A stretch of 32,000 nucleotides of DNA from Shewanella sp. GD04112 (GTDB lineage: Bacteria > Pseudomonadota > Gammaproteobacteria > Enterobacterales > Shewanellaceae). Positions 11,813-32,000 of the stretch are shown piece by piece. Position numbers and translations under genes: made by a program. The notes under the pieces were generated by a model that ran no database searches, had not been told where the DNA came from, and worked only from the letters and a program-made list of their open reading frames with translations. The stretch's first letter is position 1. Each line of letters opens with the position of its first letter. The stretch spans positions 2,470,530-2,502,529 of the forward strand of contig NZ_JAOEAL010000001.1 in the NCBI RefSeq assembly GCF_029835735.1, given 5' to 3'.

Positions 11813-11866
11813 TCCTCCACGCTTTTTTACTCAGTTTGTTTTCACAAGCCGTAGTGGAGTTATGAA

Positions 11867-12733: not shown

Positions 12734-12759
12734 GTAATGCCTGTTTTTGCTACATGTTA

Positions 12760-12808: not shown

Positions 12809-12909
12809 CACTTACCAAACTCAACTTACTAAATTTGCGATAGAAAAATTGGTATTCGAGAAACATGGTAAAAATAGTGATCTAAAACGAGGAGCTTGCG
12901 CAGTTTCCT

Positions 12910-14241: not shown

Positions 14242-15016
14242 TCATCTATTTACACACGCTCAAGACTCAAAGAAACAGTACCTTACACTAGATGATGTAA
14301 TTGATGACCCCCTATTCGCGGATGTAGATTATCGCCTTAGGGGCGGGGTAAACATTACTAGTGAAGATGACCGGTTACATACCTTTCTAGGAGAGACGGA
14401 GAGTGTGCTTCGCAAGTTTTACGGCAAGTTACACCTGGCTCTAGAAGTCACGCCTGAGAAAGTTTATTACCTAAGGCCACAGCGTCGTTCAAATGTTCCT
14501 ACGACCCGATTGAACCAATTAGAAATGGTTATGGGTCTAACGATAGTTGCAATGCAATGGGAAAAAAATGCGACTGATTTCGAATGGATCCCCGTTGATT
14601 TTCTTATTGAACGATTGAAGTCTCAGCTGTCGGACGAACGGTTCGCTGAGTTGTATCGCCGTAAGCCGGGCATTCAGACAGACCATGATGTAGGGCGTGT
14701 GAGAGAGGAAACGTTGAAGAGACTCTCTAGACTGTCACGTCTGAGTTTTATTAGGCTCAACAGAGATGAGCAGACTTTCTGGGCAACTAATGCGATCTAC
14801 AGGTTTATCGAACCTTTGAAAGGCTTGAGCAGCGAAGACGAGTTGCCAGGCCGCATAAGTTCGTTAATCCAAGAGGGTTTTCTTACCGACTCACCTTCGC
14901 CCAGAGAAGAGTTAAGAGACACGCCAAGAACAGAGTCTGAACATTGGTCATCAGAAGGCCTAACTATCGAAGGTGATACTCGCGATATGTTTGATGCGGA
15001 GGAATATGATGCGTAA
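14234..15016 (+). CDS. jetB: MukE-like KITE (JetB/MksE-class) subunit
   Basis: DPLFADVDYRLRGG...FYGKLHLALEVTPEKVYYLRPQRRSNVPTTRLNQLEMVMG parallels E. coli MukE NPLFPALDSALRSG...[40 protein letters not shown] (from memory). It has an acidic C-terminal tail. ATG 14234 overlaps the upstream stop (ATGACTGA). Confidence 0.75.
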   Translation: MTDHLFTHAQDSKKQYLTLDDVIDDPLFADVDYRLRGGVNITSEDDRLHTFLGETESVLRKFYGKLHLALEVTPEKVYYLRPQRRSNVPTTRLNQLEMVMGLTIVAMQWEKNATDFEWIPVDFLIERLKSQLSDERFAELYRRKPGIQTDHDVGRVREETLKRLSRLSRLSFIRLNRDEQTFWATNAIYRFIEPLKGLSSEDELPGRISSLIQEGFLTDSPSPREELRDTPRTESEHWSSEGLTIEGDTRDMFDAEEYDA

Positions 15017-18000: not shown

Positions 18001-19562
18001 TCGCTGACGATTACGAGCAAGCACAAAACGATCTTGCGAAAGAAGATGGAAACGTAAGTTCATTGCGTGAGAGGCACAAACAGAAACGTGTCATGCTCGA
18101 TGAGTTGAAGGTTCAGTTGAGAGAAAGCGAAGATAAAGCACGCAAAAACAAAGAGGTACATCTTAAGCTTCAATCGGAATATTCTGTGTTAGAAGAGCAG
18201 GTTGCGGAATCAAAACGTAGTTTGTCAAAGCTGACTTACCCTTATTGCGAAGGACTCGAAAAACAACTTTCACTCGATAGCGAAACGATATCTAAACGAT
18301 TGAGAGCGGCTCAAGAGCAATGTGAATCACTCCAACTTAAGCAAGTATCATTAACCGAACGCCATAACACCCTACTCAAGCAAGTAGAATCCCTACAGAG
18401 TACATCAGTGATTGCAGAAGAGGCGCGTGAAAATGCAAATGGTATAAAGCAAAAGGTGCTGGATGCTCTGCCTGCCGGAGCCACAAAACATAAGCTAGAG
18501 CAAGAAATGGACGTCTATTTTAAACTGATGCATGAAGGTGAGGCCGTCCAATACACTAATGGGATTTACGCAATATCTGGATTGGTCAATCGCTATGGTT
18601 TGAGTCGAGATGATGAGTTCTCCCAAAAAATAAATAGTTTTAATCTAGAGGGAGGGACCACCCTGCCTAGTCTTTGCCAGCTGCATAGTGACGCTATTTC
18701 TTTGTTTCGTCGGCAAGCCCGAGGGGACATTATTCGTAGTTCCGAGCCGACAGAGATGCTTACACAATTGGATAGTGCGTGTAGTCTCGCTAGGAGAACA
18801 CTTGAAAGCGCCGAAGAGCAGTTTCTCACAGATAGAAATGAACTAGGAAATGCCATTGCCCGTCGTGTACAGGATGAGCAGAAAGCCATAAGAAGGCTAA
18901 GTGCTGAAATGATAGGAATAAGCTTTGGGCAAGTTGCGGCTATTCGTCTAGTACCTAAAAGCGTCCCTCATTTCGAAGCTACTTTGAAGGCTTTGAGAGG
19001 AAGCGACGATGTCATGGACGATCTCTTCAATAATGCTGAAGATGTAGAAGAAGCGCTCGCAACACTATATCAAAAAACCACTGGTGGCCGGATCGAGGGA
19101 GAAAAGCTGCTTGACCATAAGAACTACATCAATGTGGTAACAGAAATCCAGAGAGTTGGTAGTGAAGAATTTGAGTTATTGGATGACAAAACACTTTCAA
19201 CAGGAGAGCGAATTGGCTCTGGATTGGTTGTCTTAATAGCAATTCTAAAAAACTGGGGACGGGTCTCACATGAAAAACAACCTTTCTTAATCCCGTTAGT
19301 AATGGATGAAGCATCACGTTTGGACTCCGACGCTCAGAGAACGGTGCACCAGTTGGCGGTAAAGACCGGAAGTCAGATTGTAATTGCCGCACCTGAGTCG
19401 CAAGGAAAGATATCAGGTGTTGGCTATCAACTTGTCAGAAGTGCTTCTAAAGCAGGTAACAAAGAGAGCCGTGTAATCATTAGTGGGATCCGGGATGCTG
19501 ACAGTTTAGGGATTGATGAAGAAGCATTTATCGATTCGGTTGTGAGTGGGGCGGCGCATTGA
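15006..19562 (+). CDS. jetC: MukB-like SMC ATPase (JetC/MksB-class), 1518 aa
   Basis: - SD GGAGGA precedes ATGATG at 15006.
- N-terminal head: IKSLSLVGVNGVSARTLDL, Walker A GKNGSGKTT (15141-15167), ALLPD.
- Very long coiled coils.
- Hinge-like VADLYSDIPLEEAGFTEAALGQLMCAIVVNDPS.
- C-terminal head: SFGQVAAIRL...LSTGERIGSG...LVMDEASRLD (D-E at 19305-19310)...QIVIAAPE...GYQLVR.
- Each motif matches MukB motifs as I recall them. Confidence 0.85.
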   Translation: MMRNYPYIKSLSLVGVNGVSARTLDLVNPHEHQTDRQYGTVVSLLGKNGSGKTTLLGTFMLALLPDIRSVSLGTSDNFTQTQKMQDAEMFERLGNPSLIGLEVVSRAGERALFIVRSERETGSRLKFDTFRVGLFDSLAPLDFLIVRNGNMVTPRTIDGIRDIAAEHGCRLQSFDKIDKYMLALFNDGILPRTFNRSNERYQLGQIFHSAMSGKRDQAIGRDLADFLMTHSRTNIKSVVDVLSGTMRKLRQTRDDLAHNSKDYAFFKELLEKSFTVSAKAWAQAEYNFSRADKEATSCRQDVSECKVSIEKSDQDLTECRSKLDTSVENRTSLEQESEQLKPRLASAVEGEIFYKQGKQASVSLLKKEAQLYESLSLSQLADEGADASRNKVEQANQDILDIQAQLADVQERFILLEKKAGQYRNAKSLLDSVKSWCGDSFELAKLKGMIEEYTAQSKQLALEADQLGNKLNSAENINEIHAKAASLIRRAGDSIDPNVAKNWFISTELRLEEERPLAVSLEQMRNGLSALKRNHRTVNRMLDRFKQAKLPRMPSNESEYQQLTEDRGEALESAKEVKASVDARYEDERHIQEELKIEVSRLKSLRTEWQNYQPAVARLYECFPDTQFTAEMLDGLIKNTQRELRSLRENNSRIESNIFSLKERILSLSNRETGSLETLQRFASDVGGVAVADLYSDIPLEEAGFTEAALGQLMCAIVVNDPSDAARTLLAEYGDNWPLPDVILMTVKNHSPDQLRSGGYDADLFFKDLSQEFVGADLDLNHNENDVPWVVLSEPFGGIRVSGVPTEPVLGKEARDKLIADLQIELNSKQTLFDSNDENISLLQSGLEQANRINVNPSLAFAVEPNVELKKQKLQQQGNKVADLYSQTLQATNRVKTLELQCSLLEQHADSSDLLDVNFDKEIMEAEEQIIRSEKAKKYVDRYGGTFSQIKQQYPKIREDYQSDIDTLKRQHQLAEQDLSNTNNRKRDLTSLNQVANHLADDYEQAQNDLAKEDGNVSSLRERHKQKRVMLDELKVQLRESEDKARKNKEVHLKLQSEYSVLEEQVAESKRSLSKLTYPYCEGLEKQLSLDSETISKRLRAAQEQCESLQLKQVSLTERHNTLLKQVESLQSTSVIAEEARENANGIKQKVLDALPAGATKHKLEQEMDVYFKLMHEGEAVQYTNGIYAISGLVNRYGLSRDDEFSQKINSFNLEGGTTLPSLCQLHSDAISLFRRQARGDIIRSSEPTEMLTQLDSACSLARRTLESAEEQFLTDRNELGNAIARRVQDEQKAIRRLSAEMIGISFGQVAAIRLVPKSVPHFEATLKALRGSDDVMDDLFNNAEDVEEALATLYQKTTGGRIEGEKLLDHKNYINVVTEIQRVGSEEFELLDDKTLSTGERIGSGLVVLIAILKNWGRVSHEKQPFLIPLVMDEASRLDSDAQRTVHQLAVKTGSQIVIAAPESQGKISGVGYQLVRSASKAGNKESRVIISGIRDADSLGIDEEAFIDSVVSGAAH

Positions 19563-20509
19563 TGCATGGACTACTGGAGGATGTAAAGTTAACACCTAAG
19601 CAGGCACTGGCACTTATTGATAAGCTTATTGAGCGCGGGAAAGTGTTGCCCAACCAGAGAGATAGTTTACTGATTGAGCGCCTTGAGCAACTTGGCATAG
19701 TGAAACGAGTGGGGAGTTACTGGCAGCTGTGTGAGCCCCAACGCATTGAGAGTGTTCGTAACCAAATAACGCAATATACTTTGCAAAAAAACAGGCCTGG
19801 TATCTTACGAAAGATGCCCGTTGTACATCATAAAAGTGCTGCTGCCTGGCGAGGACATAGCAAAAGTGGGCAAGGCGAGGCTCTTCAGAAAGGTCAACTG
19901 ATAAGTACAGACGATGTAGTACGGGTCCGCACTCAGAAGACCGGGTTCGTAATATACAGCGATAACGCCACGATTGATACTGACTTGGAGACTCTGCAAA
20001 GGACTGAAGTCAGCTTACCAGAACGGTTGTACAAAGACGCTCATGCGCCCTGTGTCGCTGGGGTAAAGTTGGTGTTGACTGTCGAAAACTTGGGCACATT
20101 TGTTGACTTCCCCATGGTGGATGGACTCGTATTGGTTTACTCATCAGGGAATAACTTTGCATCATCGGTTTGTTTTATCAAGCGCTTCTTGGAAGAGGTG
20201 ACCTGGGCACACTTCCCGGACCTTGATCCCAATGGTCTGATCATATCAACGCAAATGGCAGATACCCTCAACAAACCTTGCAATGTTTGGATTCCACCTC
20301 ATTGGGATAGGGTCCGAGCTCAGCCGCTGGTTTCTGGTAAAGGAAAAAAGGTATGGGGGGAAGCCCCTGCCTGCCCTGAAATCGCAAGTTTGCAGGAAAC
20401 AAGCCATTGGGTTGAGCAAGAGGTTCTCGTCTTAGATCAACGAAGCGTCAAAGCCGTCAGTGAGCTTGTTAGTGAGCCTAAGCTCCGGCTAATAACTCTT
20501 CAATACTAA
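19562..20509 (+). CDS. jetD: JetD/MksG-type Toprim (topoisomerase-VI-like) nuclease subunit, 315 aa
   Basis: The start overlaps the jetC stop (TGATG). Toprim signature: VLTVENLGTFVDF (Glu codon 20084-20086), WAHFPDLDPNGLII (DxD 20228-20236), then HWVEQEVL. The N-terminus looks winged-helix-like (LIDKLIERGKVL..LEQLGIVKRVGSYWQL). Confidence 0.7.
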   Translation: MHGLLEDVKLTPKQALALIDKLIERGKVLPNQRDSLLIERLEQLGIVKRVGSYWQLCEPQRIESVRNQITQYTLQKNRPGILRKMPVVHHKSAAAWRGHSKSGQGEALQKGQLISTDDVVRVRTQKTGFVIYSDNATIDTDLETLQRTEVSLPERLYKDAHAPCVAGVKLVLTVENLGTFVDFPMVDGLVLVYSSGNNFASSVCFIKRFLEEVTWAHFPDLDPNGLIISTQMADTLNKPCNVWIPPHWDRVRAQPLVSGKGKKVWGEAPACPEIASLQETSHWVEQEVLVLDQRSVKAVSELVSEPKLRLITLQY

Positions 20510-20699
20510 AGATTTTACGATTGACAGTTCAGGCGGCAGTTAATCAAACATTGTACTCGGCGAAGCTGATGTTCGTGCAGTGTGTCGACAATTCCGCTAC
20601 AGGGAAAGTCTCAATTCATTGCCTGGCGAACAATAGCCTAGCTATGCCCATAAGAAGCAGTTATCTGACTAGTTTACTTCTTAAGAATAAGGATACTTA

Positions 20700-22010
20700 A
20701 TGAGTATTGAGAAGTTTAGAAGCGTGGAGGAACTAAAACAGTTCTTCGAAGAAGGAGGTAACCCTTGGTTTGATGCAGAATTTTCTCCTCAGACTCAGAG
20801 TATCGTCGAAGCATTGGATGCAAAAGGAGCCTTTCTCAATAAGTGGTGGGTAAGGACCGCCATGGATTGGAAGTGTCCCGCCTGTAAAAGGACTAAGCCC
20901 CAAATAGCCAAACTAGATAATCGTAGATATGCCTCCTGCAAACTGGAGGAGCATCACGATCACATGAAGGATACGGTGCGCACGTTGTTCGAAGAAATAT
21001 CTTCGAACAGAGAAGTCGTTGTTGCAACTGAGCTAGCTAAGCGGTTTGCAATCAGGACGTCCTTTGCAATTTCCGCTTACGATAACACGGTGATTTGCGC
21101 GGATTGTAATAAAGCAGACGGTATTGCAAAACGGATGGTCAAAACTCACAGTGACTTTTCATACTCTCCAGCAGAAATTGGGCGATTTGTAAAACCATCA
21201 GATAATCGAGAGCATGAAATTGACGCGGATATCGCCAAGGAAATTTGGAACGAGAATCTGGAAACGTTCAATAAGCGTATGCAGTTGGCAAAAGTTATAG
21301 CGGAGTTGGCTGCCAGCGATTCACATTGGTATCAACCCTCAGAACCAACAGCCAAGCAAGTCAATGATTCTGCCAATTACAAGTTTAACTTGCGTGGATT
21401 AAGAGACCTTCACGATGATCCTGAAAAGCTTCTATACAATACAACGCCTTTCAAGGGAAACCACTCATCATGGAGATTGAATCCCAAGCCTTTCACAAGT
21501 ACGAGACCAACTGATGGACAAATAGCACATTTATCTAACACCAGGGGGCGGTACTGGAACAGGTACGACGACAGCTGGCAATGCCCATGTTGTGGTCGTT
21601 TAAAGCGGGAATGTCTTAAGCCGTCTAAAAATAACCCTTGGGTGTTTGAAGTAAAGGCCATTCTAGCTCATGATTCTGAGCATCAGTCTTTTGCTGAAGA
21701 AATTAAGGTGTGCAACGAATGTTTCAATGCTGCAAACCATCTTGGCCAGGAAGCAATAAAAGAAGCCAAAGAACAAGATGAGACGGTAGATGTATATTTT
21801 CCACATAGCTTGATACAACTGGAAGAGTTGAAGTCTGTTATAACGCCGAGATTACACTCCTCACATATCATTGATAATGACTTGGCTGAAAACGTGGTTC
21901 GCAATGCCATCAGGCGCATTATTGATGAAGACTATAACCAATCCCCAAAGCACAAGATGAAGCTGCAAGAACAGTTCAGTACAATGCTTTATGGTGGAAG
22001 TTGTGAATAG
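20700..22010 (+). CDS. Protein with two endonuclease-VII/HNH-like zinc modules (436 aa), otherwise unassigned
   Basis: SD aaggatacttaATG. Module 1: WKCPACKRTK...KLEEHHDHMKD...(about 47 aa)...VICADCNKADGIAKR. Module 2: WQCPCCGRLKREC...ILAHDSEHQSFAEEIKVCNECFNAANHLGQ. The layout CxxC...H.DH...CxxCN..(D/E)G is that of the T4 endonuclease VII branch of the HNH fold. Confidence 0.55.
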   Translation: MSIEKFRSVEELKQFFEEGGNPWFDAEFSPQTQSIVEALDAKGAFLNKWWVRTAMDWKCPACKRTKPQIAKLDNRRYASCKLEEHHDHMKDTVRTLFEEISSNREVVVATELAKRFAIRTSFAISAYDNTVICADCNKADGIAKRMVKTHSDFSYSPAEIGRFVKPSDNREHEIDADIAKEIWNENLETFNKRMQLAKVIAELAASDSHWYQPSEPTAKQVNDSANYKFNLRGLRDLHDDPEKLLYNTTPFKGNHSSWRLNPKPFTSTRPTDGQIAHLSNTRGRYWNRYDDSWQCPCCGRLKRECLKPSKNNPWVFEVKAILAHDSEHQSFAEEIKVCNECFNAANHLGQEAIKEAKEQDETVDVYFPHSLIQLEELKSVITPRLHSSHIIDNDLAENVVRNAIRRIIDEDYNQSPKHKMKLQEQFSTMLYGGSCE

Positions 22011-22164
22011 TTCAGCCTTCGCTAGACACGAATGCAGCGACTCCACTGTCTAATTTGATCAAATATTGTGAAGGTCCACTAGAACCGACTTTAAAAAAAA
22101 TCAGTGATTTATATGGGGATTACTAAAATTGGCCTTCTTTTGAGAATTACATGAGGGGAATGAA

Positions 22165-22530
<366 letters not shown>

Positions 22531-22857
22531 CTATGCCACTACACTCATATATTAGAACGTGAGAGCGTGGAGCGGATCGCTGCTCATCCTGGAAATCCGA
22601 TTGGCAATATTGTCGAACTCTGGGAAGAACAGGAAATCGGTGTGACTAAAGAAGCAAAGTTATTGAAGGTAATTGACCGCTTATTGCCATTCTTACATAA
22701 CATGACTAGCGAAGGCCAAGCTTGGAGGGATAATGGAATACATAAAGCCCAAGTGTTGAATATGCACCAATTTATCGAGAAGGAAAGTCCTGAAATTTTT
22801 TCATGGTTTGTTATACAGCTCGAATATGCCGTTGAACAAGGTTGGCTTAAAGCATGA
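22531..22857 (+). pseudogene. 3' fragment of an HD-domain (HD_3-type metal-dependent phosphohydrolase) gene
   Basis: ..IVELWEEQEIGVTKEAKLLKVIDRLLPFLHNMTSEGQAWRDNGIHKAQVLNMHQFIEKESPEIFSWFVIQLEYAVEQGWL matches the C-terminal half pattern of HD_3 proteins. The catalytic HD part is missing, and the frame is open right up to the IS3 terminus at 22530. Confidence 0.55.
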
Positions 22858-23065
22858 TCTTTCATTGGTTGTTTCTTGTCTATCCAGACTAGGCCCGTAA
22901 CTTGTCGATGCCCCATTCAAAGTTATCAACACGACTTGAGATGAGCATCACTAGCCTAATGTTGACCCAAACTAAGTAATGCGACAAAGTCCCCCTGTGT
23001 CAGGATTGTTGTCACCCCTAAATAATCATTATGTTTAAAGACAGGGTGCGGCAAAAGAGAACGAT

Positions 23066-23566
23066 ATGGCTCGGTATTCACCAGAACGTAAAGAAGCGAT
23101 CCTTAAAAAATTATTACCTCCTCACAACTTAACGGTCGCAGAGGTCGCTCGGGAAGAAGGCATCGCGGTGCAAACCTTGTATCATTGGCGAGATATTGCC
23201 AGAAAAGAAGGTCGCCCCGTGCCAGGTAAAACATTAACAGCCGATGATTGGTCGGCTGAAGCAAAACTTGCCGTGATTATTGAAACAGCGCCGCTGTCGG
23301 AAGCGGAGATAAACCAGTATTGCCGTGAAAAGGGCTTGTTCCGCGAGCAAGTACAGCAGTGGAAACAGGATTGTTTAGCTGGTTTTCAAACCTCAGAAGT
23401 ACAAACTAAAACCATTAAACAGCAGGCTAAGGCTGACAAAGCCGAAATCAAATCGCTGCAACGGGAATTGCGCTATAAGGAGAAAGCGCTGGCTGAAGCT
23501 GCTGCGTTACTGGTGCTCAGAAAAAAGCTCAATGCGCTCTGGGGGGACGACAGCGAGGAGAGCTAA
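23066..23566 (+). CDS. IS3-family transposase OrfA (HTH + leucine zipper)
   Basis: MARYSPERKEAILKKLL..LTVAEVAREEGIAVQTLYHWR is an HTH, followed by a coiled-coil tail KAEIKSLQRELRYKEKALAEAAALLVLRKKL. Confidence 0.8.
   Translation: MARYSPERKEAILKKLLPPHNLTVAEVAREEGIAVQTLYHWRDIARKEGRPVPGKTLTADDWSAEAKLAVIIETAPLSEAEINQYCREKGLFREQVQQWKQDCLAGFQTSEVQTKTIKQQAKADKAEIKSLQRELRYKEKALAEAAALLVLRKKLNALWGDDSEES
23521..23527 (+). promoter_or_regulatory. Programmed -1 ribosomal frameshift heptamer A AAA AAG
   Basis: The heptamer is in the X XXY YYZ register of orfA (codons AGA AAA AAG). The -1 frame is open from here into orfB (..AQCALGGRQRGELTPLPERIALI..). Confidence 0.7.
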
Positions 23567-23571
23567 CCCCC

Positions 23572-24621
23572 TTGCCTGAGCGCATAGCATTGATTGCCTT
23601 AATCCAAGAGGCCTATACCAATGGTGCTCGCCTTTATAAGGCTTGTGCTGAAACGGGCCTCAGTAAGCGTACCTATCGACGTTGGTATCGAGAAGGTCAA
23701 GTGCAAGCTGATTTAAGGCCAACAGCAGCTCGACCAGAGCCAGCAAATAAACTCGAAGAACATGAGCGACAACAGATATTAAGTGTGTGCAATCAAGCGG
23801 AGTACGCCAGCTTACCCCCGTCGCAAATTGTGCCAACATTATTAGATAACGGGATTTATATCGCCTCGGAATCCAGCTTCTACAGAGTGTTAAATGCTCA
23901 TGGTCAACTTAACCATCGTGGCCGCACTCAGGCTGCGGTCAATCGAAGCAAACCGTTGAGTTATCGGGCAGATGGGCCGAATCAAGTGTGGTCATGGGAC
24001 ATCACTTATTTAGCCTCAATCGTCAAAGGCCAGTTCTACTATTTGTACCTGTTTGAAGATATTTACAGTAGAAAAATAGTGGGTTACGAAGTTCATGAGC
24101 AAGAAAGTGGGGAATATGCCGCTGCGCTAATCCAACGCTGTCTGTTACGCGAGCAATGCTTTAACACGCCATTAGTGCTGCATTCTGATAATGGGGCGCC
24201 GATGAAGTCACTGACCATGAAAGCCAAGCTGGAAGAGCTTGGTATTACGGCATCATTAAGTCGGCCGCGGGTGAGTAATGACAACCCCTTTTCAGAGTCG
24301 TTATTTAAAACGTTGAAATACCGCCCACAGTGGCCGGCATCAGGTTTTAGCTGCTTAGCAACAGCAAGAGAATGGGTGGAAAAGTTTGTAACCTGGTACA
24401 ACGATGAGCATAAACACAGCCAGCTAAATTTTGTCTCACCAGGGCAACGTCATGCACTGCAAGATGGCGCTATTTTAGCGAAGCGCAAGAAAGTGCTTGA
24501 GGCGGCGAAGGAAAGAAAACCGATGCGTTGGTCTACAGAGATCAGAAATTGTGAAGCGGTTGGCGCTGTAACACTCAACCCAGATAAGGCACCAGAAGAA
24601 GGCGTAATAAATGCAGCTTAA
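23572..24621 (+). CDS. IS3-family transposase OrfB (DDE integrase core; expressed as an OrfAB fusion)
   Basis: WSWDITYL (D), LVLHSDNGAPM (D), SNDNPFSESLFKTLKYR (E); rve-type core. The frame is -1 relative to orfA. Confidence 0.8.
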   Translation: MPERIALIALIQEAYTNGARLYKACAETGLSKRTYRRWYREGQVQADLRPTAARPEPANKLEEHERQQILSVCNQAEYASLPPSQIVPTLLDNGIYIASESSFYRVLNAHGQLNHRGRTQAAVNRSKPLSYRADGPNQVWSWDITYLASIVKGQFYYLYLFEDIYSRKIVGYEVHEQESGEYAAALIQRCLLREQCFNTPLVLHSDNGAPMKSLTMKAKLEELGITASLSRPRVSNDNPFSESLFKTLKYRPQWPASGFSCLATAREWVEKFVTWYNDEHKHSQLNFVSPGQRHALQDGAILAKRKKVLEAAKERKPMRWSTEIRNCEAVGAVTLNPDKAPEEGVINAA

Positions 24622-24764
24622 TATTTAAACAAAGAGTGACAACTATCTTGAAAAACACCGAAGTCGCCGACTCTAACTATGGCGATTCTGCGCCGCTTAC
24701 TACTAATAATCATTAAGTTAATTATTCTTAAATATCTGAAAGGAAGCACCTATGATAGGCATTA

Positions 24765-25106
24765 TTGCCGATTGTCTTGGTTTACCTGGGCGTCCTACTC
24801 TTTTTAAGCCAGATTCTGCTATGGAAAATGCCTGCTGGGGGCAAGAAAACAATGGTTTCTCTGCTGCTGTTGCCGCTGCTGGCAGGCCTAAGCTTTATTG
24901 ATGAAATATGGGCCAGGCACCAGTTTCAGGCCTTATGCGCAGAAGATAATTTACTAAGCTACCAGGCGGATAAGGTCAGGGGGCAAGCGGTCAGCACCAA
25001 AGCGCTGATCCGGAACAATATCAGCGCAGCCGTGCCTATCGTTGAGCATACCCGGTACTGGTTTGTAGCTGGCACTGATGACATCGTGATCACCAGCAAA
25101 AGTTAG
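24765..25106 (+). CDS. Hypothetical small membrane protein (2 predicted TM helices); doubtful start (TTG)
   Basis: Hydrophobic N-terminus IVLVYLGVLLFLSQILLW and LLLLPLLAGLSF. It is more GC-rich than the DNA downstream. A competing ATG at 24752 with a good SD lies in another frame. The ORF ends at a TAG that is in frame with the next ORF. Confidence 0.25.
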   Translation: MPIVLVYLGVLLFLSQILLWKMPAGGKKTMVSLLLLPLLAGLSFIDEIWARHQFQALCAEDNLLSYQADKVRGQAVSTKALIRNNISAAVPIVEHTRYWFVAGTDDIVITSKS

Positions 25107-26018
25107 TTAGAAAATGGAAATTTATCTCCTCAAGATGCTGAGAAGCAATTAAGCGACATCTTAGTTCCGTTATTAAATGAAGATGGGTATAACATTGTTC
25201 AGACTCCTTTTCGCGGTGACATTGGAGTAGATTTTATTGCTGAGAAGCAACTTTCCACTAACCTAGAGCAAGTGGGAATCGAATATAAGCACTATAAATC
25301 TGCTGTAGGTGTCGATGCTGTTCGCCGGTTACTGGGAACAACATTTACTCACAACTTTGACCGTTTAATTTTAGTAACCAAATCTCGTTTTACTAAAGCT
25401 GCCCTTGAGCTTGCGAATTCGGCTTTACCAGTCAAGCTTGAACTAATTGACTTAGATGCTCTAAGAGCGTGGGTGCAGAGAGCAGAAAAAACTGAAGACT
25501 ATGACTTCGAACTAGTAAATATTATTCGTTCCAATATTAGCGAGCGGTTAGCAGTGCTAATAGCTAAAAATCCGCGATATCTAATGGATATTGAATGGAG
25601 AGAGCTTGAGTATGTTATTCAAACCGTTTTTGAAGAGCTAGGGTTCAGCGCAGAACTTACCCCAGGAAGCAAAGATGGCGGTAAAGATTTAGTGCTTACC
25701 TGTAGGATTTCTGGGCAAGATCATACATATTACGTAGAGCTGAAGCACTGGAGATCCCAACAAAAAGTAGGTGGACAAGCTGCTAGAGGTTTCCTGAAAG
25801 TGATTGTTAATGAAGAAGTGAATGGTGGGTTATTTCTTTCTTCATATGGTTATTGTGAGAATGCGTTTGAAATGTTGACTGAAATTGACAGAAAACATTT
25901 AAAGTTCGGCGATCAGAAAAAAATCGTTACATTATGTACACAATACGTTAAGTCTAAATCTGGTATTTGGTCTCCTACTAGCGGTTTATCGGAAGTATTG
26001 TTTGAACAAACTATATAA
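25107..26018 (+). pseudogene. Tandem Mrr-like (PD-(D/E)xK restriction-endonuclease fold) domain protein with no credible start for domain 1
   Basis: Domain 1: GYNIVQTPFRGDIGVDFIAEK...VGIEYKHYKS..VGVDAVRRLLG...LILVTKSRFTKAA. Domain 2: LGFSAELTPGSKDGGKDLVLT...YYVELKHWRS..VGGQAARGFL..GGLFLSSYGY. The frame is open from 25107, immediately after TAG 25104-25106. The first in-frame start (GTG 25272) falls inside the E-x-K motif of domain 1. Confidence 0.5.
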
Positions 26019-26046
26019 ATTCGCCTAACAAGGCGCTCAAGAATGA

Positions 26047-26069
26047 CAAAAAACGCTTGGCGTTTTTTG
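26047..26069. terminator. Bidirectional terminator-like palindrome (A6-stem-loop-T6)
   Basis: caaaaaacgc ttg gcgttttttg, 29 nt after the Mrr-like stop codon. The GC core of the stem is short. Confidence 0.4.
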
Positions 26070-26277
26070 CATCTTAGCTTTGCGTTAACCCATAGAAATT
26101 TTTATCCGAAAATGTCGAGTTAGAGTTAAGGCTTTAACTCGGAATTGTCCAATTACTTGATAGAGCATTTAATACAAATGAAAGAATAGGGCGGAATAAA
26201 AGTAGTCACAAAATTAGTGTTTTAAGATGCTTATTACATTGACAAATGCCATACATTTTTTACAAGGAAGCATCTTC

Positions 26278-26748
26278 ATGATATCAGTAACTTTTCACGA
26301 AAACTCGAGGCGTACACGTCAATTCAAGTCTGAAAATGGAGCTTTGAAGGCCGTATGGAAATGGCTTAAAGCAACAGAAGACGATAACGCCTATGCAGTG
26401 ATTATTGGTCCTATGTATTCTGAGCCAAGAGTCATCAAAGGCTGGCAAGAACTTCCATTCAGTGAACCTGAAAATTTAGACTTTTTGCAGACTAAGGAAT
26501 GGCGTCGACTGAGACAACAGGCCTTTGAGTTATATGGAAACTTTTGTGCCTGCTGTGGTAGAGGTCCAAAAGATGGCGTAGTGCTTCATGTAGATCATAA
26601 AAAACCTCGTTCGAAATATCCAAAACTTCAAGATGACATCAACAATCTTCAGATTCTTTGTGAAGAACACAACCAAATGAAATCCAATACATCTGAGCGC
26701 GATTGGGCTCAGTGGTGCCAAGCCAACTCTGTACGTGGCACTAAATAG
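26278..26748 (+). CDS. HNH endonuclease (small, stand-alone)
   Basis: Classical motif CACCGRGPKDGVVLHVDHKKPRSKYP....NLQILCEEHNQMKSN. The ATG at 26278 follows aaggaag; the track start at 26227 is less likely. Confidence 0.8.
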   Translation: MISVTFHENSRRTRQFKSENGALKAVWKWLKATEDDNAYAVIIGPMYSEPRVIKGWQELPFSEPENLDFLQTKEWRRLRQQAFELYGNFCACCGRGPKDGVVLHVDHKKPRSKYPKLQDDINNLQILCEEHNQMKSNTSERDWAQWCQANSVRGTK

Positions 26749-26834
26749 TCCAACACAAGGGTTAGTGAGGCACGGGCACGTGTCGAAGTATTCATAAATC
26801 AGAGCGACTGTTGTTATAAACACTCAGACACAAA

Positions 26835-26904
26835 ATTCTCACGTATTTCAGAATAGAGCACCTAAATCAGAATAGTGAGAACATTCTGATTCTCAGTGAG
26901 AATT
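26835..26904. repeat. Cluster of the same about 24-bp units as at 10436-10537, here in opposed orientations (mini-palindromic block)
   Basis: attctcacgtatttcagaatagagc (26835-26859, + orientation). atcagaatagtgagaac is a partial copy. cattctgattctcagtgagaat (26882-26903) is in inverted orientation and is part of IR-R. Confidence 0.8.
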
Positions 26905-26908
26905 GTCA
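26882..26908 (-). repeat. Right terminal inverted repeat (IR-R) of the accessory segment
   Basis: Its reverse complement, TGACAATTCTCACTGAGAATCAGAATG, matches 10431-10457 at 25/27. It ends ..CA at 26907-26908 and is followed by CGCA (26909-26912), the same tetranucleotide that precedes IR-L. Confidence 0.8.
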
Positions 26909-26944
26909 CGCATAGGGAATAGTGCTTTCCATATTTACTCACAT

Positions 26945-27178
26945 TCAATTTAACATAATATACATTGTGCGCATCCTTTTTTTTGAGGAATGTTCACACA
27001 GCCTTTTTGAGTCGGCCAGTATTAAGAGAACGTGCCATATAGGGAACATGATCACGATTGAGACATAGAACTCAGCCATAGATTTAAACTCAATTTCAGA
27101 TTCAATAGGAACCCAAAGAGTAACTTTAGTTAGACCAGAGGCGCGCTTCTTAGCTTCATACTTAGAGTTGCGACTCAT
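26945..27178 (-). CDS. Small ORF with a ribbon-helix-helix-like N-terminus whose 3' end reads through dif
   Basis: MSRNSKYEAKKRASGLTKVTLWVPIESEIEFKSMAEF resembles RHH/DUF3018-type small regulators. The last about 10 codons (..KKRMRTMYIMLN) are encoded by the dif sequence itself. Confidence 0.4.
   Translation of the reverse strand: MSRNSKYEAKKRASGLTKVTLWVPIESEIEFKSMAEFYVSIVIMFPIWHVLLILADSKRLCEHSSKKRMRTMYIMLN
26948..26975 (-). other. dif: dif site (XerC/XerD chromosome-dimer resolution site), doubling as the prophage junction
   Basis: The plus strand reads ATTTAACATAA TATACA TTGTGCGCATC. The reverse complement of E. coli dif (GGTGCGCATAATGTATATTATGTTAAAT, from memory) is ATTTAACATAATATACATTATGCGCACC, giving 26/28 identity. 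Confidence 0.8.
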
Positions 27179-27348
27179 GGCGTCACCAGTGACGGGGCAT
27201 TCTTAGCACCTTCAACAGGTATCAACTCGCAAAAGGAATTAATAAAATCGAAATAAGTGTTATGAGTATAGATAACACCGAGAGCAAAACCTAAGAAAAC
27301 AAAAACAAGTAAAACAAAAACAACAAAAAGTATTTCTTGAATATCCAT
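27175..27348 (-). CDS. Small phage membrane protein (57 aa)
   Basis: One strongly hydrophobic helix (ILFVVFVLLVFVFLGFALGVIY). ATG 27348 follows ggag. It overlaps the next ORF start (ATGA-type). Confidence 0.35.
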   Translation of the reverse strand: MDIQEILFVVFVLLVFVFLGFALGVIYTHNTYFDFINSFCELIPVEGAKNAPSLVTP

Positions 27349-27368
27349 AAATATAATCTCCAATTATT

Positions 27369-27400
27369 GGGAGGGGGCGCTCCGCTTGCCTCCCCCTCCC
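27369..27400 (-). terminator. GC-rich hairpin immediately after the zot-like stop codon
   Basis: gggaggggg (27369-27377) pairs with ccccctccc (27392-27400) across a 14-nt loop. There is no clean U tract on the minus strand, so a terminator or attenuator role is tentative. Confidence 0.35.
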
Positions 27401-28740
27401 TACCTATTTGCAAGCGAGTATTCACGGTCAGATTGATTAGTTTCAGGTTTGACCTTAATCAAGGGCTGACAAGTGATAAAAGTAGTAAAGTCATTAAATT
27501 TAAGTCTGGCTAAACATTCAGTTATAGGTGAGACAACAAATCCAACCGAACTAGGTAAAAAAACCTCATCAGTAACGGGATTGTAAAAGGAATAATCATA
27601 ATGAACTAAGCCATTGGATTTTTTTACATACTGGGAACCTGAAATATAAACATCCTTTGTAGCATCAGAAACGAACTTAGTTAAAAGCTGTGTTTCAGCA
27701 TCATCAAGTAAAGATGATGATTTAGGCAAAAGAGAAACTTTTGACTTGGGCTCATTAGGGGATGCAGTCTCAGGCGTTTGGAGAACTGAGTCAGGGACAG
27801 CAGAGGTTTTATCAAAAAACAATGTATTGGCAAATGAGTAAACAGAAAAAACAACAACAAAAATAAGAATAATCAAAATATAAAATATCTTGGGCATCTT
27901 AAATTTATGGGTATGCAGTTCAGCACTAAAATAAGAGCCATAGAAATTCGTTGGCCTCTTAATTAATGACTTTTGGCAATTTTTGACATCGTGATAATCA
28001 TCAACATCAAAACTTTTTGAGTTCTGATAACGAGCGACACGGTTAGAGTTAAACGCATTATGATAGTGAACATGGCGATTGACTAAACGCCTTACGTTAC
28101 TATCTAAAAGCATTCTATCCTGTGTAATTAAATGTATATCGTAACCATCATGGCGGTGAGTCTCAAATTTTGAAATATGAGGTGGAACTGTAGAACCCAC
28201 AGGACGAGGCGGGAAAAATTGCTGACACTCATCAATTAGGATAATGCTCTGCTTTGGTAGATTGAACCAATCCTTAGGGTTAGCAAAATGAGTAAAATGT
28301 AAATTCAAGTGCTCAAGGTGTGAGAACTCAACCTTATCGTAAGGCATATTGCTTAGGAACTCATCAAGCAGAGCCGTCTGCTTTGATGAATAAAGTTTTT
28401 TAACCCAAAACAGCCAAGTGTCTAGATGGTTGGCCGTATTGTAATAAGGCTCAAGCCAAGGAACGTCAGACAGTTGAATCAAATCACCGTTATCGTGAAC
28501 CCGTTTGATAATTTTACGAATGCGCTTTAGTGCCTGTTTGTTCTTCAAACGGTACATATAAAGACCGTAGAACCAGCCAGAAAAACTAGAGGCAACCTCA
28601 AAATCAAGCATCAACAACTTGATGTTATTATAAAAAATTGGCCTAGTGCCATTATTAGCGCCAACAAGATAAGCAATGGTATTCAGCGATTTAGACGCGC
28701 CCGGCTTCCCTGTAACTAACTCTAACATTATGCGCTCCAA
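27400..28740 (-). CDS. Zot/pI-like phage assembly ATPase
   Basis: N-terminal P-loop ELVTGKPGASKS, a Walker-B-like IILIDECQQFF, a single central TM helix (IFYILIILIFVVVFSVYSF), then a periplasmic C-terminal domain. This is the architecture of filamentous-phage gene I/Zot proteins. Confidence 0.8.
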   Translation of the reverse strand: MERIMLELVTGKPGASKSLNTIAYLVGANNGTRPIFYNNIKLLMLDFEVASSFSGWFYGLYMYRLKNKQALKRIRKIIKRVHDNGDLIQLSDVPWLEPYYNTANHLDTWLFWVKKLYSSKQTALLDEFLSNMPYDKVEFSHLEHLNLHFTHFANPKDWFNLPKQSIILIDECQQFFPPRPVGSTVPPHISKFETHRHDGYDIHLITQDRMLLDSNVRRLVNRHVHYHNAFNSNRVARYQNSKSFDVDDYHDVKNCQKSLIKRPTNFYGSYFSAELHTHKFKMPKIFYILIILIFVVVFSVYSFANTLFFDKTSAVPDSVLQTPETASPNEPKSKVSLLPKSSSLLDDAETQLLTKFVSDATKDVYISGSQYVKKSNGLVHYDYSFYNPVTDEVFLPSSVGFVVSPITECLARLKFNDFTTFITCQPLIKVKPETNQSDREYSLANR

Positions 28741-29078
28741 TCAACAGGTGATTTGTCGCCCGGCTTACGCCAAACAAGCTGCCTAGAGTAGCCGCTTTTG
28801 GAGACTCCTTTTAATACCATAAGCGCAACGCCGCTAGACATTGCAATATTTAAAGCCGTATCAATCCCAAGTAGGTGAATAAAAGTGGCTATATGAGGAA
28901 ATATAATTGAAGATGCAGAAGCATTTAAACGGTTAATTATTTCGTCAAAAATAAAACCTACTCCCGCATAAGTAACTGTACCAAAGCCAATAGCAACACC
29001 AATACGAGCAACAGAAGCGGTAATAAATTGACCAAGGAAAGGAAAAATAGAAGCAAGTAATAAAGGTATGAATTGCAT
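28728..29078 (-). CDS. pVI-like minor coat/membrane protein
   Basis: 116-aa polytopic hydrophobic protein located between the pIII-like and Zot-like genes, with overlapping stop/start. Assignment is positional only. Confidence 0.5.
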   Translation of the reverse strand: MQFIPLLLASIFPFLGQFITASVARIGVAIGFGTVTYAGVGFIFDEIINRLNASASSIIFPHIATFIHLLGIDTALNIAMSSGVALMVLKGVSKSGYSRQLVWRKPGDKSPVDWSA

Positions 29079-29087
29079 ATTTACCCC

Positions 29088-30659
29088 TTAGTGATATTTG
29101 ACAATCATTAAACCAGAAGCAACAGAAGCAAACGCAATTAAGAAGAACTTAATAACAGTTGCCAAGTCACAGAATGGTGATAAGTCGATAGTAAAGGTGG
29201 TAATTTTGGCATCAACAACATAAGGAGGTGGACAGGTATCAGAACCACCAAAATTAACACCGTTAGAAGAATTGTAATGCTCAGTAAATTGTTTTATGTC
29301 TACAGTGCCAGCATCTAAATTTTTAATATCAGAATCTTCACTATTTATAAAATCAGTAAGTGAATTTGTGGCAGCATTAACAGATTCAGAGGCAGAAAGT
29401 TCATCGGCAATAGTTTTACAACGGGACTCCCACTCCTTACGAGCGATATAGCATTGTGGGCTATTGGTAGAGCATACAAAAGTTTCGCAACCGTTCTCAG
29501 TAATAGCATCAGGGTCAGAGCCAGAGCCATCGCCAATCTTTCCAATGGCATCGACAATACTTTGCTCGGATTTACCAATAGCGCCTTCAATATCACGCAT
29601 ACGAACAGCAATATCTGTAAGGTTACTGTTTGCATCTAAAAGCTGCTCGACAACATCGGAATTATCAGAAGATGCACCACCAACAGAGCCTTTAATATCG
29701 GACAGAGTACTATTTACTTTCATTAACTCATTATATTGAGCCATCATCATTTCTAGCTTCTGCATTTCGAGTTGTAAGTCACCACCACCACCTCCACCTC
29801 CACCTTGAGCAATACGGCCTAATAAATCAGTAATAGTATTTGAAAGAGTATTATTTATAGCAGGGATTGAGGCAGAATTATTATTTATATTAGAAGAATC
29901 GGAGCTAATTTGACCTAACTTGTCTGCCATATAACCCAAAACTTGCATATATTCACCAGTAGAAGATGAACCGCCGCCAGATTGGGCTTTAATAGAATCT
30001 CGAATTTCAGCTAGGATAACTTGATTCTGTGAAACCCATTGCGTTTGGTATTGAATATCCGAGCGAACGCCACTCACACCACTGGCAAGAGCATTGCCTA
30101 AACCATCGGTACGATTAATTAAATCAGTGAACTGGTTAAAGTTCTGCCATCTTAATTGGTCAATAGATGTTTTAGTGTAAGAGGATTGTCTCGCACCCTT
30201 TAAAAGTGCGTCATAAATAACGCCTAAATCCGTGTGAATATCCTTAAGTTCAGTTGTAAAAGTAGTTGGCACCCAAGGATAAGGCGATAAGTTATCAGAA
30301 CTAGGGTCGGGAAAATTTGGGTTAGGATTTAGGTCAGGGTCTGGATTAGTACCACCGCCTCCGTCTTGACAGTTGTTAACGTCAGTTTCAAAGTAAACCA
30401 TCCAAACAGTGCAAAATGGGTTTTGCGGGTCGCCAGTTGCACAAACTAAATTTGTGCCCTTCCATGAAAAATCGTTTGAATCACATTGGGTATGGAAAAA
30501 AGCATTAGCGTCAGACTCAGCAGTAGCGCCAGTAAAATCAAAGGAAATTTCAACGCCAGGAGTTGCAGGTGGGGAATAAGCGAACGCAGGAGAACTTAAA
30601 CAAGCTAAAAGAAGATACGCCGCACGCAATCTGTAAGAACGAGAAGGACTAAAAGCCAT
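29088..30659 (-). CDS. pIII-like adsorption/minor coat protein
   Basis: Signal peptide ..LLACLSSPAFA. Cys-containing N-terminal domain. Pro/Asn/Asp-rich linker (GGGTNPDPDLNPNPNFPDPS). A Gly8 run. C-terminal membrane anchor (FFLIAFASVASGLMIVKY). It sits directly after the major coat gene. Confidence 0.65.
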   Translation of the reverse strand: MAFSPSRSYRLRAAYLLLACLSSPAFAYSPPATPGVEISFDFTGATAESDANAFFHTQCDSNDFSWKGTNLVCATGDPQNPFCTVWMVYFETDVNNCQDGGGGTNPDPDLNPNPNFPDPSSDNLSPYPWVPTTFTTELKDIHTDLGVIYDALLKGARQSSYTKTSIDQLRWQNFNQFTDLINRTDGLGNALASGVSGVRSDIQYQTQWVSQNQVILAEIRDSIKAQSGGGSSSTGEYMQVLGYMADKLGQISSDSSNINNNSASIPAINNTLSNTITDLLGRIAQGGGGGGGGDLQLEMQKLEMMMAQYNELMKVNSTLSDIKGSVGGASSDNSDVVEQLLDANSNLTDIAVRMRDIEGAIGKSEQSIVDAIGKIGDGSGSDPDAITENGCETFVCSTNSPQCYIARKEWESRCKTIADELSASESVNAATNSLTDFINSEDSDIKNLDAGTVDIKQFTEHYNSSNGVNFGGSDTCPPPYVVDAKITTFTIDLSPFCDLATVIKFFLIAFASVASGLMIVKYH

Positions 30660-30729
30660 ATTAAATCCTGTAATGTGATAAGCATAAAACCCCTAAGGAG
30701 GGGCAAGCCCCTCACAGAGAAAACGACTA

Positions 30730-30933
30730 TTAGCCGAAGATTGCGCCTTTAGCCCATTTAAAAACGACCGCGATAGCAGCAAGGCCAAGCATGGCACCAC
30801 CGACAGCAGTTAACGCAGCAGAACCATCGGTAGTAATCGCTGTTGTAGCAGCAGTCACATCGATAGCAGCACTAGCAGAAGAAGCAGCAACGGCAGAACC
30901 TAAAGCCACAGCGGATACAAGGTACTTTTTCAT
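30730..30933 (-). CDS. Major coat protein (pVIII/Cep-like)
   Basis: 67 aa. Signal peptide MKKYLVSAVALGSAVAASSASA. The mature part of about 45 aa has an acidic/neutral N-terminus, a hydrophobic core and a basic C-terminus (..VVFKWAKGAIFG). Confidence 0.8.
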   Translation of the reverse strand: MKKYLVSAVALGSAVAASSASAAIDVTAATTAITTDGSAALTAVGGAMLGLAAIAVVFKWAKGAIFG

Positions 30934-30948
30934 AAATCACCTATTTAG

Positions 30949-31164
30949 TTAGAAGCCGATTTGACGGCGGACGAGTTTTATAACAAATGCAATTGCGTAG
31001 AGTCCCGCAATAGCACTAAACAAAGCAAAGACCTCGGGCTGAGTGATTTGATTATCAAGCTGTTTAGCTTCAACAAGTAGATAACCGTCACAAGGGTCAG
31101 CGGTAGATACCTGTAAAAGAGTACCGCTTAGGCCGTTGGGAACCTCAACAACACAGAGAGCCAT
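30949..31164 (-). CDS. Small hydrophobic phage protein (pVII/pIX-position minor coat candidate)
   Basis: 71 aa with a C-terminal TM helix (VFALFSAIAGLYAIAFVIKLV). Assignment is positional only. Confidence 0.4.
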   Translation of the reverse strand: MALCVVEVPNGLSGTLLQVSTADPCDGYLLVEAKQLDNQITQPEVFALFSAIAGLYAIAFVIKLVRRQIGF

Positions 31165-31176
31165 TGCTTTGAATCC

Positions 31177-31497
31177 TTACGCCTTGCGAACAGCAGTAGG
31201 CGCTTCAAAAAGATGGAAGCCGTTAATAGAAACGTGCTTGCCTTCAGCATTAGCAAAAGACAATTCTTTATATTCGATTGAAAGAGTAATCCGCTGGTCA
31301 ACGGAAGCCTTCAAAGTCTCAATAGTTTTATTATCTTTTACAAGAGCCTCTGAAACATGAACATCTAATATCTGTGAAGGTGAAGATGCTAAAAAACGGA
31401 AAACACCAACATCAACAGATTCACCAGTCTGGTAATTTTTGATTTTTGGTTTAATTTGAATATCAGTTAAATCGGGGATTCTGCCTTCAATTTTCAT
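31177..31497 (-). CDS. Candidate ssDNA-binding protein (gene V position)
   Basis: 106-aa soluble, beta-rich-looking ORF immediately downstream of the replication gene, with SD aaaggaaatacaaaATG. Assigned by size and position only. Confidence 0.45.
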   Translation of the reverse strand: MKIEGRIPDLTDIQIKPKIKNYQTGESVDVGVFRFLASSPSQILDVHVSEALVKDNKTIETLKASVDQRITLSIEYKELSFANAEGKHVSINGFHLFEAPTAVRKA

Positions 31498-31556
31498 TTT
31501 GTATTTCCTTTCAGTTAAAAAAATGGGTCGGGACAGTTATTGACACGAGTCCAAGG

Positions 31557-32000
31557 CTAATGTCGAAACACCATAGCGCTCGCTTCGCTCGCTGGTGTTT
31601 CATCATTAGCTAAAGCATCAAGCCATAAAGCTTGCATTTCTTCATACTCCTGCACATGGCGCTCATATTCGGCATAGTCCTGTTCGGCCATACGTTGATA
31701 TTCGCGCTCCATTTCGAGAATGTCGAAAATATCAACAACGCCAGACATGACTTGCTTACGGGCTGCTATGTACTCCTCTTTGTTGACAAGCTTCCAATTT
31801 TTGAAGCGGGTAGCCTTGAAAACGCCGTGAAAAAGAACGCCATTAACGCGAGCGTGAGCAGCATCGCCATAGCGGGTTTTTGCATGTTCTGGCGCATCAA
31901 AAAGTTTGGAGATAACCGCGGGAACGGCATAATGGGTTTTTACAGTTTGGTCGGCGCGGCGAACAAAAATACCGCCCATGGCCATGCAGAAAGCGCCCCA
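31557..32000 (-). CDS. Phage replication-initiation protein (gene II/RstA-like), C-terminal part only; 5' end lies outside the window
   Basis: The minus-strand frame is open from the window edge (..WGAFCMAMGGIFVRRADQ..) to the stop at 31557. It is the first gene of the phage module. Assignment is mostly positional. Confidence 0.45.
   Translation of the reverse strand, partial: WGAFCMAMGGIFVRRADQTVKTHYAVPAVISKLFDAPEHAKTRYGDAAHARVNGVLFHGVFKATRFKNWKLVNKEEYIAARKQVMSGVVDIFDILEMEREYQRMAEQDYAEYERHVQEYEEMQALWLDALANDETPASEASAMVFRH

Follow-up and report, generated by a model that had tools for sequence, protein, structure and literature searches.

A probable Dolos-lineage filamentous prophage bordered by a hybrid dif site in the chromosome of Shewanella sp. 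GD04112

Integration of integrase-less filamentous phages (inoviruses) at the chromosomal dif site, their tandem arrays and their use of a host secretin are established biology of integrative mobile elements exploiting Xer recombination (IMEXs) (PMC4246890; PMC12715192). In the CTXphi class, attP1 with a 12-bp spacer and attP2 with a spacer of 5-7 bp lie 90 bp apart, the substrate is (+) single-stranded DNA (ssDNA), XerC is the catalyst and integration is irreversible (PMC4246890). Phages of the VGJphi type (VGJphi, f237) are likewise without integrase and secretin and enter dif by XerC-initiated exchange, but they possess one double-stranded 29-bp attP, integrate reversibly and encode the activator XafV next to attP, whereas the clade described below has two inverted sites. 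Shewanella phage Dolos (GenBank OP867012.1) is a filamentous ssDNA phage of 8146 nt isolated on S. oneidensis MR-1, which is chronic and episomal, shows a filamentous virion in electron microscopy and reaches up to 1e11 particles (bioRxiv 10.1101/2023.11.28.569023). In this study, we analyzed a stretch of 32,000 nucleotides from Shewanella sp. GD04112 (contig NZ_JAOEAL010000001.1, positions 2,470,530 to 2,502,529), referred to as the window. Positions 26962-32000 on its minus strand are, with good probability, the Zot-side ~5 kb of a Dolos-lineage inovirus prophage of about 8.3 kb located at dif.

The inovirus region displays 76-78% DNA identity to Dolos over 77% of its length, a similarity far beyond chance, and the phage homology ends at position 26962, inside a 28-bp dif site at 26948-26975. 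The conserved inovirus order of replication, ssDNA-binding, coat, adsorption and assembly genes is present. The genes are tightly packed, with stop and start codons overlapping at pVI/Zot and at the last two small open reading frames (ORFs). A preliminary description, made from the letters alone, had proposed a CTXphi/VGJphi-style filamentous prophage without secretin or integrase. The order and sizes of all its minus-strand ORFs were borne out by our ORF check, and inovirus homologues of the coat and Zot-like genes were matched by Pfam, PHROG, NCBIfam and synteny with Dolos. The start that it gave, position 26976, is approximately right (within 1-14 nt), and the dif site that forms the true left end had been overlooked.

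The element and Dolos share the order Rep, ssDNA-binding protein, small hydrophobic protein, coat, pIII-like, pVI-like, Zot, ORF8 and three divergent small ORFs, as well as a size of ~8.1-8.3 kb, the lack of secretin and integrase, and the same attP1/attP2 hairpin region with an identical XerC arm. Amino acid identities are 92.6% for Rep (full-length protein of L002, see below), 97% for the coat protein (Dolos ORF4), 86% for pVI (ORF6) and 84% for Zot (ORF7). In contrast, the ssDNA-binding protein (63%, ORF2), the small hydrophobic protein (59%, ORF3) and two regulatory ORFs are only ~60% identical. The phage in the window further differs by a replaced pIII middle, an extra 57-aa transmembrane (TM) ORF and a frameshifted ORF8, and it is found integrated at dif while Dolos was isolated free and episomal.

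The dif site on the minus strand (26975-26948) reads GATGCGCACAA-TGTATA-TTATGTTAAAT, composed of the XerC arm at 26975-26965, the central region at 26964-26959 and the XerD arm at 26958-26948. It is the single exact site in the window, where 0 are expected by chance. A second dif-like site, as would mark a further IMEX, was not found in the window within 8 mismatches, and further IMEXs in the window were rejected. Six related Shewanella genomes, including S. decolorationis Ni1-3 (CP031775), possess a native, unoccupied dif ~350 nt after fdhE in the same orientation. These empty sites read ACTGCG(C/T)ACAATGTATATTATGTTAAAT, and the published dif of S. oneidensis MR-1, ACTGCGCACAATGTATATTATGTTAAAT (PMC2731167), is the same sequence. 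The window site matches the central region and XerD arm of native Shewanella dif, ACTGCGCACAA-TGTATA-TTATGTTAAAT, and differs from it only in the outer bases of the XerC arm, GAT versus ACT. On the XerD side, the flank at 26908-26947 aligns to the six empty-site genomes. On the phage side, GATGCGCACAA is preceded by ...CTCAAAAAAAAG, which is the exact attP1 arm of Dolos and of the related sequences L017, L018, L021, L044 and L047. Because the XerC arm is that of attP1 and the rest is native, we regard the site as a hybrid of phage and host, in which the crossover took place within TGCGCACAATGT, the 12 bases that both partners share. This stretch includes the junction of XerC arm and central region, where XerC makes its cut (PMC4246890), and the crossover position points to dependence on XerC/XerD. 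Insertion at dif, presumably via the host XerCD, explains the absence of an integrase.

The reciprocal junction was found in the relative L018, where the host flank runs ...CCCAAATCCCTCGCACATAAA-ACTGCGCACAA|TGTGATAACG-TTATGTTGAGG and matches the XerC-side flank of the empty sites. Insertion at the chromosomal dif with a hybrid junction, as in an IMEX, is thus seen in the window for the left end of the prophage, and the other junction comes from this relative. An assembly chimera, in which a purely episomal phage was joined to the chromosome through sequence common to attP1 and dif, was weighed here. The two sites do have 12 identical bases in common, short-read assemblies of relatives break at this place, and Dolos is described as non-integrating. 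However, 12 bases are far under the overlap length of any assembler, and the join looks exactly as an exchange by XerC would leave it. The independent contig L018 moreover carries the reciprocal junction with a genuine Shewanella XerC-side flank, and the array of L017, whose copies are ~80-84% identical, is hard to explain other than by successive integrations. A chimera was rejected as hardly credible.

Some further observations were made around dif in other sequences. A metagenome scan with the host flank plus dif matched only dif sites of unrelated genomes with canonical XerC arms, and the 8 bases beyond the XerD arm were found to belong to a conserved extended motif. In Ni1-3 (L042, CP031775.3, ~2.586 Mb), another inovirus at locus positions 5775-6903 lies ~100 nt from the native dif on its XerC side, with a Phage_CRI/G2P-type Rep and a Phage_DNA_bind gene V. 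Since it adjoins the same dif, at least two unrelated inovirus lineages use this site in Shewanella. The metagenome contig Ga0207798_100358 (L035, 1673-4190) contains the dif AGTGCGCATTATGTATATTATGTTAAAT and, ~1.6 kb on, a gene ~65% identical in DNA to the window Rep; it probably represents another dif-integrated inovirus in an unrelated genome.

The part of the element beyond the window was reconstructed from identical and related contigs. Over window 26962-32000 (5039 nt), L002 (Logan SRR21472611_441, 8257 nt) and L003 match with 100% identity. On L002 the replication gene is neither truncated nor absent: Rep has its full 714 aa (PF05840 Phage_GPA, E=1.4e-82), and upstream of it three small ORFs are transcribed divergently; they encode 67, 101 and 73 aa and have their homologues in Dolos ORF11, ORF10 and ORF9. 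This agrees with the preliminary description, which had placed a replication and regulatory module outside the window; the cargo that it had allowed for there is not found on L002. No secretin, integrase/recombinase or cargo gene was seen among the genes of L002, L044 and L047, in line with the secretin- and integrase-less character first proposed. The unit length is 8.2-8.3 kb in these three contigs, within the 5-15 kb of a compact inovirus genome. The window copy would accordingly be complete beyond the window edge, as judged from the 100%-identical contigs of other datasets.

Other relatives were found in different states. L018 (IMG/VR UViG_3300033997_000278) and L017 (UViG_3300024308_000077) are 92% identical in nucleotides to the window phage, with 98% for pIII and a Zot match of 100% in the best tblastn segment. 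L044 (NCBI JAOTLR010000057.1, 8332 nt), an isolate contig, is 98.6% identical over the Zot-side half. The relationship is mosaic, different relatives being closest in different segments, and their states (tandem array, repeat-collapsed contig, closed circle) and host backgrounds differ. L017 is a tandem array of at least three copies, some only ~80-84% identical to one another, and L018 contains a full phage followed by the start of a second copy. L044 starts at TGCGCACAATGT and ends at ...GATGCGCACAATGT, so that the overlap of its ends is precisely the 12 nt that attP1 and dif have in common; such trimming to the shared bases is expected for a repeat node with two contexts. The end of L044 corresponds to window 26962, and L002 and L045 stop there as well. 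L047 (Logan SRR17050889_70945) has an intact attP and a 30-nt terminal overlap, and is therefore a closed circle of 8219 nt. None of L018, L017, L044, L002 and L047 was found described in a paper.

The attP region was compared over 11 attP copies from nine phage sequences of the clade. attP1 has a spacer of 10-13 nt and the inverted attP2 a spacer of 6 nt, and the two sites are 46 or 90-93 nt apart. In the exact phage, L002, the XerC arms of attP2 and attP1 are visible. All attP1 spacers start with TGT, the dif central region being TGTATA, and homology between attP and dif beside the XerC arm is the rule for CTXphi (PMC4246890). As ssDNA the region is predicted to fold into a forked hairpin, with paired XerC arms, an asymmetric bulge and paired XerD arms (z = -3.8 to -8.3 versus shuffles). 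In the arms-only alignment 90.9% of cells pair, against 24-46% in slid controls, and four compensatory pairs are located at outer, non-consensus arm positions, with a covariation score reached by 0/500 shuffles. A conserved inner stem-loop follows directly after the XerD arm of attP1, with ATGCGCAGCA in its loop, which resembles a reversed XerC half-site. It was located in Dolos (L001 6600-6625), L017 (3460-3485 and 11800-11825), L019 and L047 (3040-3065), and is kept in the 46-nt and 90-nt spacer versions alike.

These features favour an attP of the CTXphi type, which would act as a folded ssDNA site, over one of the VGJphi type. If the same phage had entered dif by double-stranded recombination as VGJphi does, it would lie between two compatible flanking sites and could excise again. 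The canonical 6-nt spacer of attP2 would suit this, and distant Vibrio relatives (L008/L024, ~48% Zot identity) have a direct dif-like site on either side, the two being ~7.6 kb apart as in the VGJ type; also, junction topology alone cannot tell double-stranded from single-stranded recombination at attP1. However, the window junction uses the attP1 arm with its upstream context, ...CTCAAAAAAAAG-GATGCGCACAA, and not attP2. The attP1 spacer of 10-13 nt is of a length that, for CTXphi, does not suit a double-stranded site (PMC4246890). With a spacer of 10 nt at the far-junction site of L018, the flanking sites form no compatible pair, and throughout the clade the inverted pair is retained together with its spacing and compensatory changes. 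A single double-stranded dif-like attP with canonical spacer and two compatible flanks is therefore not what was found, with attP1 used and a 10-nt spacer in L018, and double-strand integration of the VGJphi type was rejected as very unlikely.

Several points weigh against the reading of the locus as a dif-integrated Dolos-lineage prophage of CTXphi type. Dolos was reported not to integrate into S. oneidensis MR-1, in a preprint that makes no mention of dif, Xer or attP (bioRxiv 10.1101/2023.11.28.569023). The far (host/phage) junction and ~3.3 kb of the element are outside the window, and L002 is without ~70 nt of the attP1 spacer region; this part was taken from relatives whose neighbouring Zot-side segment is 92-98.6% identical. 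Two inverted dif-like sites will pair automatically over much of their arms; independent covariation comes only from the outer arm positions, and the sequences compared are related.

The likeness to CTXphi covers the lack of integrase and secretin in an inovirus whose assembly protein is Zot, and two inverted dif-like sites, a long-spacer attP1 and a short-spacer attP2, ~90 nt apart with a predicted (+)ssDNA fold. It also covers the crossover at the border of XerC arm and central region, the dif regenerated on the XerD side and the tandem arrays of relatives. CTX-type sites have reportedly been described in enterobacterial phages as well. On the other hand, a protein relationship to CTXphi is seen only for Zot and the coat class, the host is Shewanella, and there is no toxin or other cargo gene. 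The Rep is a PF05840 (P2 gpA-like) HUH protein, probably unlike RstA of CTXphi. The regulators are small proteins without known family, apparently with no RstR-type repressor, though no direct test was made. The Dolos lineage also has a robust episomal member, whereas the replicative form of CTXphi is unstable (PMC4246890).

On these grounds we propose how the element would integrate. The phage, having no integrase of its own, would carry attP1 on its packaged (+) strand, with the XerC arm GATGCGCACAA, a spacer of 10-13 nt beginning with TGT and the XerD arm, and the inverted attP2 with its 6-nt spacer ~90 nt downstream. Both sites would pair in ssDNA to give a forked hairpin that mimics dif. 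Host XerC would then swap one strand pair between hairpin and dif at the border of XerC arm and central region, and replication would fix the insertion. The product would be host XerC arm | attP1 spacer ... phage ... phage XerC arm | host central region plus XerD arm, and the window junction would be the second of these, regenerating a usable dif. A complete single copy is predicted to continue beyond the window into the inverted attP2, GACGCGCACAA-CGCACA-TTATGTTACGG, then, after ~90 nt, the XerD arm of attP1, a spacer of 10-11 nt and the native arm ACTGCGCACAA. This far-junction arm would be preceded by ...CCCAAATCCCTCCCACACAAA, near window coordinate 35,280. The double-stranded site would not be recombinogenic, and excision is not expected. 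Virions would come either from a tandem copy, by rolling-circle replication across it, or from an episomal replicative form, with assembly by Zot, the coat proteins, pIII and pVI and export via a host secretin.

The window copy abuts dif on its Zot side and so is the last member of any array. Because it abuts dif and integration is expected to be irreversible, virions would arise only if a tandem copy is present upstream or an episomal replicative form exists. The copy might then be a trapped, non-productive remnant of a single irreversible insertion, with a decaying accessory gene and no virions. Its ORF8 homologue is frameshifted, rolling-circle replication started at its own origin would continue past dif into the host chromosome, the far end is not in the window, and virion production of CTXphi needs tandem copies (PMC4246890). 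Several findings stand against this. Measured against Dolos, none of the seven recognisable genes for replication and morphogenesis is shortened, the close relative L047 exists as a closed circle, and Dolos replicates productively as an episome. The 100%-identical phage occurs over 5 kb in other sequencing runs, and a look-up of the dif-adjacent HNH gene returned only other samples; since the runs with the identical phage were not among these, the phage seems to have spread recently and to occur in another host background. The contigs L002, L044 and L045 break exactly at ...GCGCACAATGT, and such breaks at shared bases indicate that the phage end has two continuations there, host dif and phage attP1, so that those samples would contain a replicative form or a tandem copy. 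A remnant seems doubtful, and the element may still be active. The preliminary description had thought it functional since all ORFs seen were intact. The full length of the replication and morphogenesis genes upholds part of this reasoning, but one ORF is broken, and intact genes are not sufficient for activity of the CTX type.

The broken ORF is the last small one, a 77-aa ORF (26945-27178, minus strand) that had been counted as intact. It is the frameshifted homologue of Dolos ORF8, a conserved 61-aa protein, and its shifted frame crosses the dif site. Dolos, both copies in L017 and L044 have one T more than the window in the T-run at 27069-27070, and the conserved C-terminus LNRDHVPYMARSL...KKAV* sits in another frame of the window copy. 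PHROG 11804 matches only aa 1-38 of the 77-aa ORF. The 61-aa protein is intact in Dolos, L017 (both copies), L018, L021 and L047, and seven database homologue clusters are all intact, with 61-67 aa. In L044 and L045 (GCA_030008365.1 and GCA_030008375.1), ORF8 has a nonsense codon 30 (GAG to TAG) together with substitutions at conserved residues. By alignment, ORF8 has thus been inactivated twice independently, by the frameshift in the window and by the nonsense codon in L044/L045.

ORF8 is encoded 15 nt from attP1, and the Xer activators XafT and XafV are encoded adjacent to attP (bioRxiv 10.64898/2026.06.12.731946). No similarity of ORF8 to XafT or XafV was detected, and neither was any XafT/XafV-like protein in the phage. 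Pfam gave MazE-like matches only (E=0.02-0.1, below cutoff), the NCBIfam search gave no match, and the AlphaFold model of moderate confidence (pLDDT 75) had no Foldseek match in PDB or BFVD. ORF8 as a relative of XafT/XafV is hence unsupported by family or fold match. It is conceivable, if rather unlikely, that the Dolos lineage has a dual lifestyle of high-titre episomal replication and CTXphi-type ssDNA integration by XerC at dif, in which ORF8 would be a factor related to lysogeny or Xer that disappears after chromosomal fixation of the phage.

The other genes of the prophage are all on the minus strand. The 3' end of rep (31557-32000) contains the last 147 codons of the 714-aa rolling-circle initiator, open at the window edge, and its C-terminus matches PHROG 28319 (E=1e-36) and also PHROG 91, 'nicking at origin of replication'. 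It is followed by the gene V equivalent, an ssDNA-binding protein of 106 aa (31177-31497; PHROG 5738, E=4e-30) for which a PDB sequence search found no match. The next protein, of 71 aa (30949-31164; PHROG 2924, E=3e-11), has one C-terminal hydrophobic segment (TM aa 43-66) and a weak match to PHROG 4644, 'tail protein'; from its position it is a candidate minor coat protein, corresponding to pVII/pIX. The major coat protein precursor of 67 aa (30730-30933; PF05356 Phage_Coat_B, E=1.9e-12) possesses a signal-like N-terminal segment and a TM segment. Directly after the coat gene, at 30689-30714, a consensus scan gave a terminator-like GC-rich hairpin with a T-run, a pattern match only, at the location typical of an inovirus terminator.

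The 523-aa protein encoded at 29088-30659 is a mosaic pIII-like adsorption/minor coat protein. This assignment is made because of its architecture of linkers and membrane anchor, its TspB match and its gene position. The protein contains four Gly/Ser-rich linkers and is anchored by a TM segment at its C-terminus (aa 495-521). The last ~50 residues match NCBIfam NF041109, the TspB C-terminal domain, with 38.6 bits against a cutoff of 24, and PHROG 4352 was matched with E=1e-12. In filamentous prophages of Neisseria, TspB is the counterpart of the adsorption protein. No Pfam match was obtained for the protein, and the PDB sequence search gave nothing meaningful. Compared with Dolos it is 41.6% identical overall, the N-terminal ~100 and C-terminal ~120 aa being conserved, while aa ~100-350 (window 29600-30360) have 10-28% identity. 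The worst 50-aa blocks of the middle are at 8-28% versus Dolos, L044 and L047, and the L018 homologue is 98% identical. The hypervariable middle suggests swapping of a putative receptor-binding domain between otherwise alike phages.

The pVI-like minor coat/membrane protein of 116 aa (28728-29078) matches PF10734 DUF2523 (E=3e-9) and PHROG 1242 (E=3e-18), and its stop overlaps the Zot start by 1 nt. The Zot/pI-like assembly ATPase of 442 aa (27400-28728) starts with ATG and matches PF05707 (E=1.4e-17) and PHROG 1041, 'CTXphi Zot-like toxin' (E=7e-93). It displays a Walker A motif GKPGASKS at aa 7-14 and a hydrophobic (TM) segment within aa 274-306, and the exact protein is present on L002, L003, L044 and L045. 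Between Zot and ORF8 lies a 57-aa single-TM protein (27175-27348; TM aa 1-31), which is called as a gene on L002, L044 and L047 and has a homologous frame in L017 and none in Dolos. An Rfam scan of 22000-32000 found no family. The promoter scan was uninformative, with fewer sigma-70-like matches than in shuffles.

The order along the window is the fdh operon (4661-10120), a ~16.5-kb island (10432-26901), 46 nt of native flank, dif and the prophage. The island, located between fdhE and dif, is absent from the six related Shewanella genomes and ends 46 nt from dif. It is bordered by 30-nt imperfect terminal inverted repeats (10428-10457 and 26882-26911) and by ACGCAT as a direct duplication of 6 bp. 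Besides an internal IS3 copy and an IS3 OrfA fragment at 11523-11762, the island showed no recognisable transposase of its own. The IS3-family insertion sequence at 23066-24621 encodes OrfA (HTH_Tnp_1) and OrfB (rve). At 11867-20509, a WYL-domain regulator is divergent from a four-gene MukF/MukE/MukB plus JetD-like (Wadjet/Mks-like) system. Its matches in Pfam and PADLOC are weak (MukB N-terminus 3e-19, JetD 8e-7, JetA/B hardly recognised), and it may be a divergent variant. A 436-aa ORF (20700-22010) gave no family in Pfam, PADLOC or NCBIfam. The island also encodes an Mrr_cat (type IV restriction-like) protein (25272-26018) and an orphan PtuB-like HNH nuclease (26227-26748) with no PtuA partner adjoining.

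The element is otherwise an ordinary IMEX prophage without cargo genes, and what is new is modest: the Dolos lineage carries a CTX-type attP and occurs integrated in Shewanella chromosomes, while the sole description of the lineage reported no integration. The exact borders aid the annotation of such prophages, which are often mis-delimited by prediction tools, and the attP hairpin could be an integrase-free, site-specific integration device for Shewanella. A low-frequency integration of Dolos at the MR-1 dif (ACTGCGCACAA|TGTATA) is predicted. With the window prophage, the single-strand integration strategy would be extended to a Shewanella phage lineage without an earlier integration report, and the lineage of Dolos, a laboratory model for inovirus satellites in S. 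oneidensis, would be temperate with CTXphi-style integration at dif.

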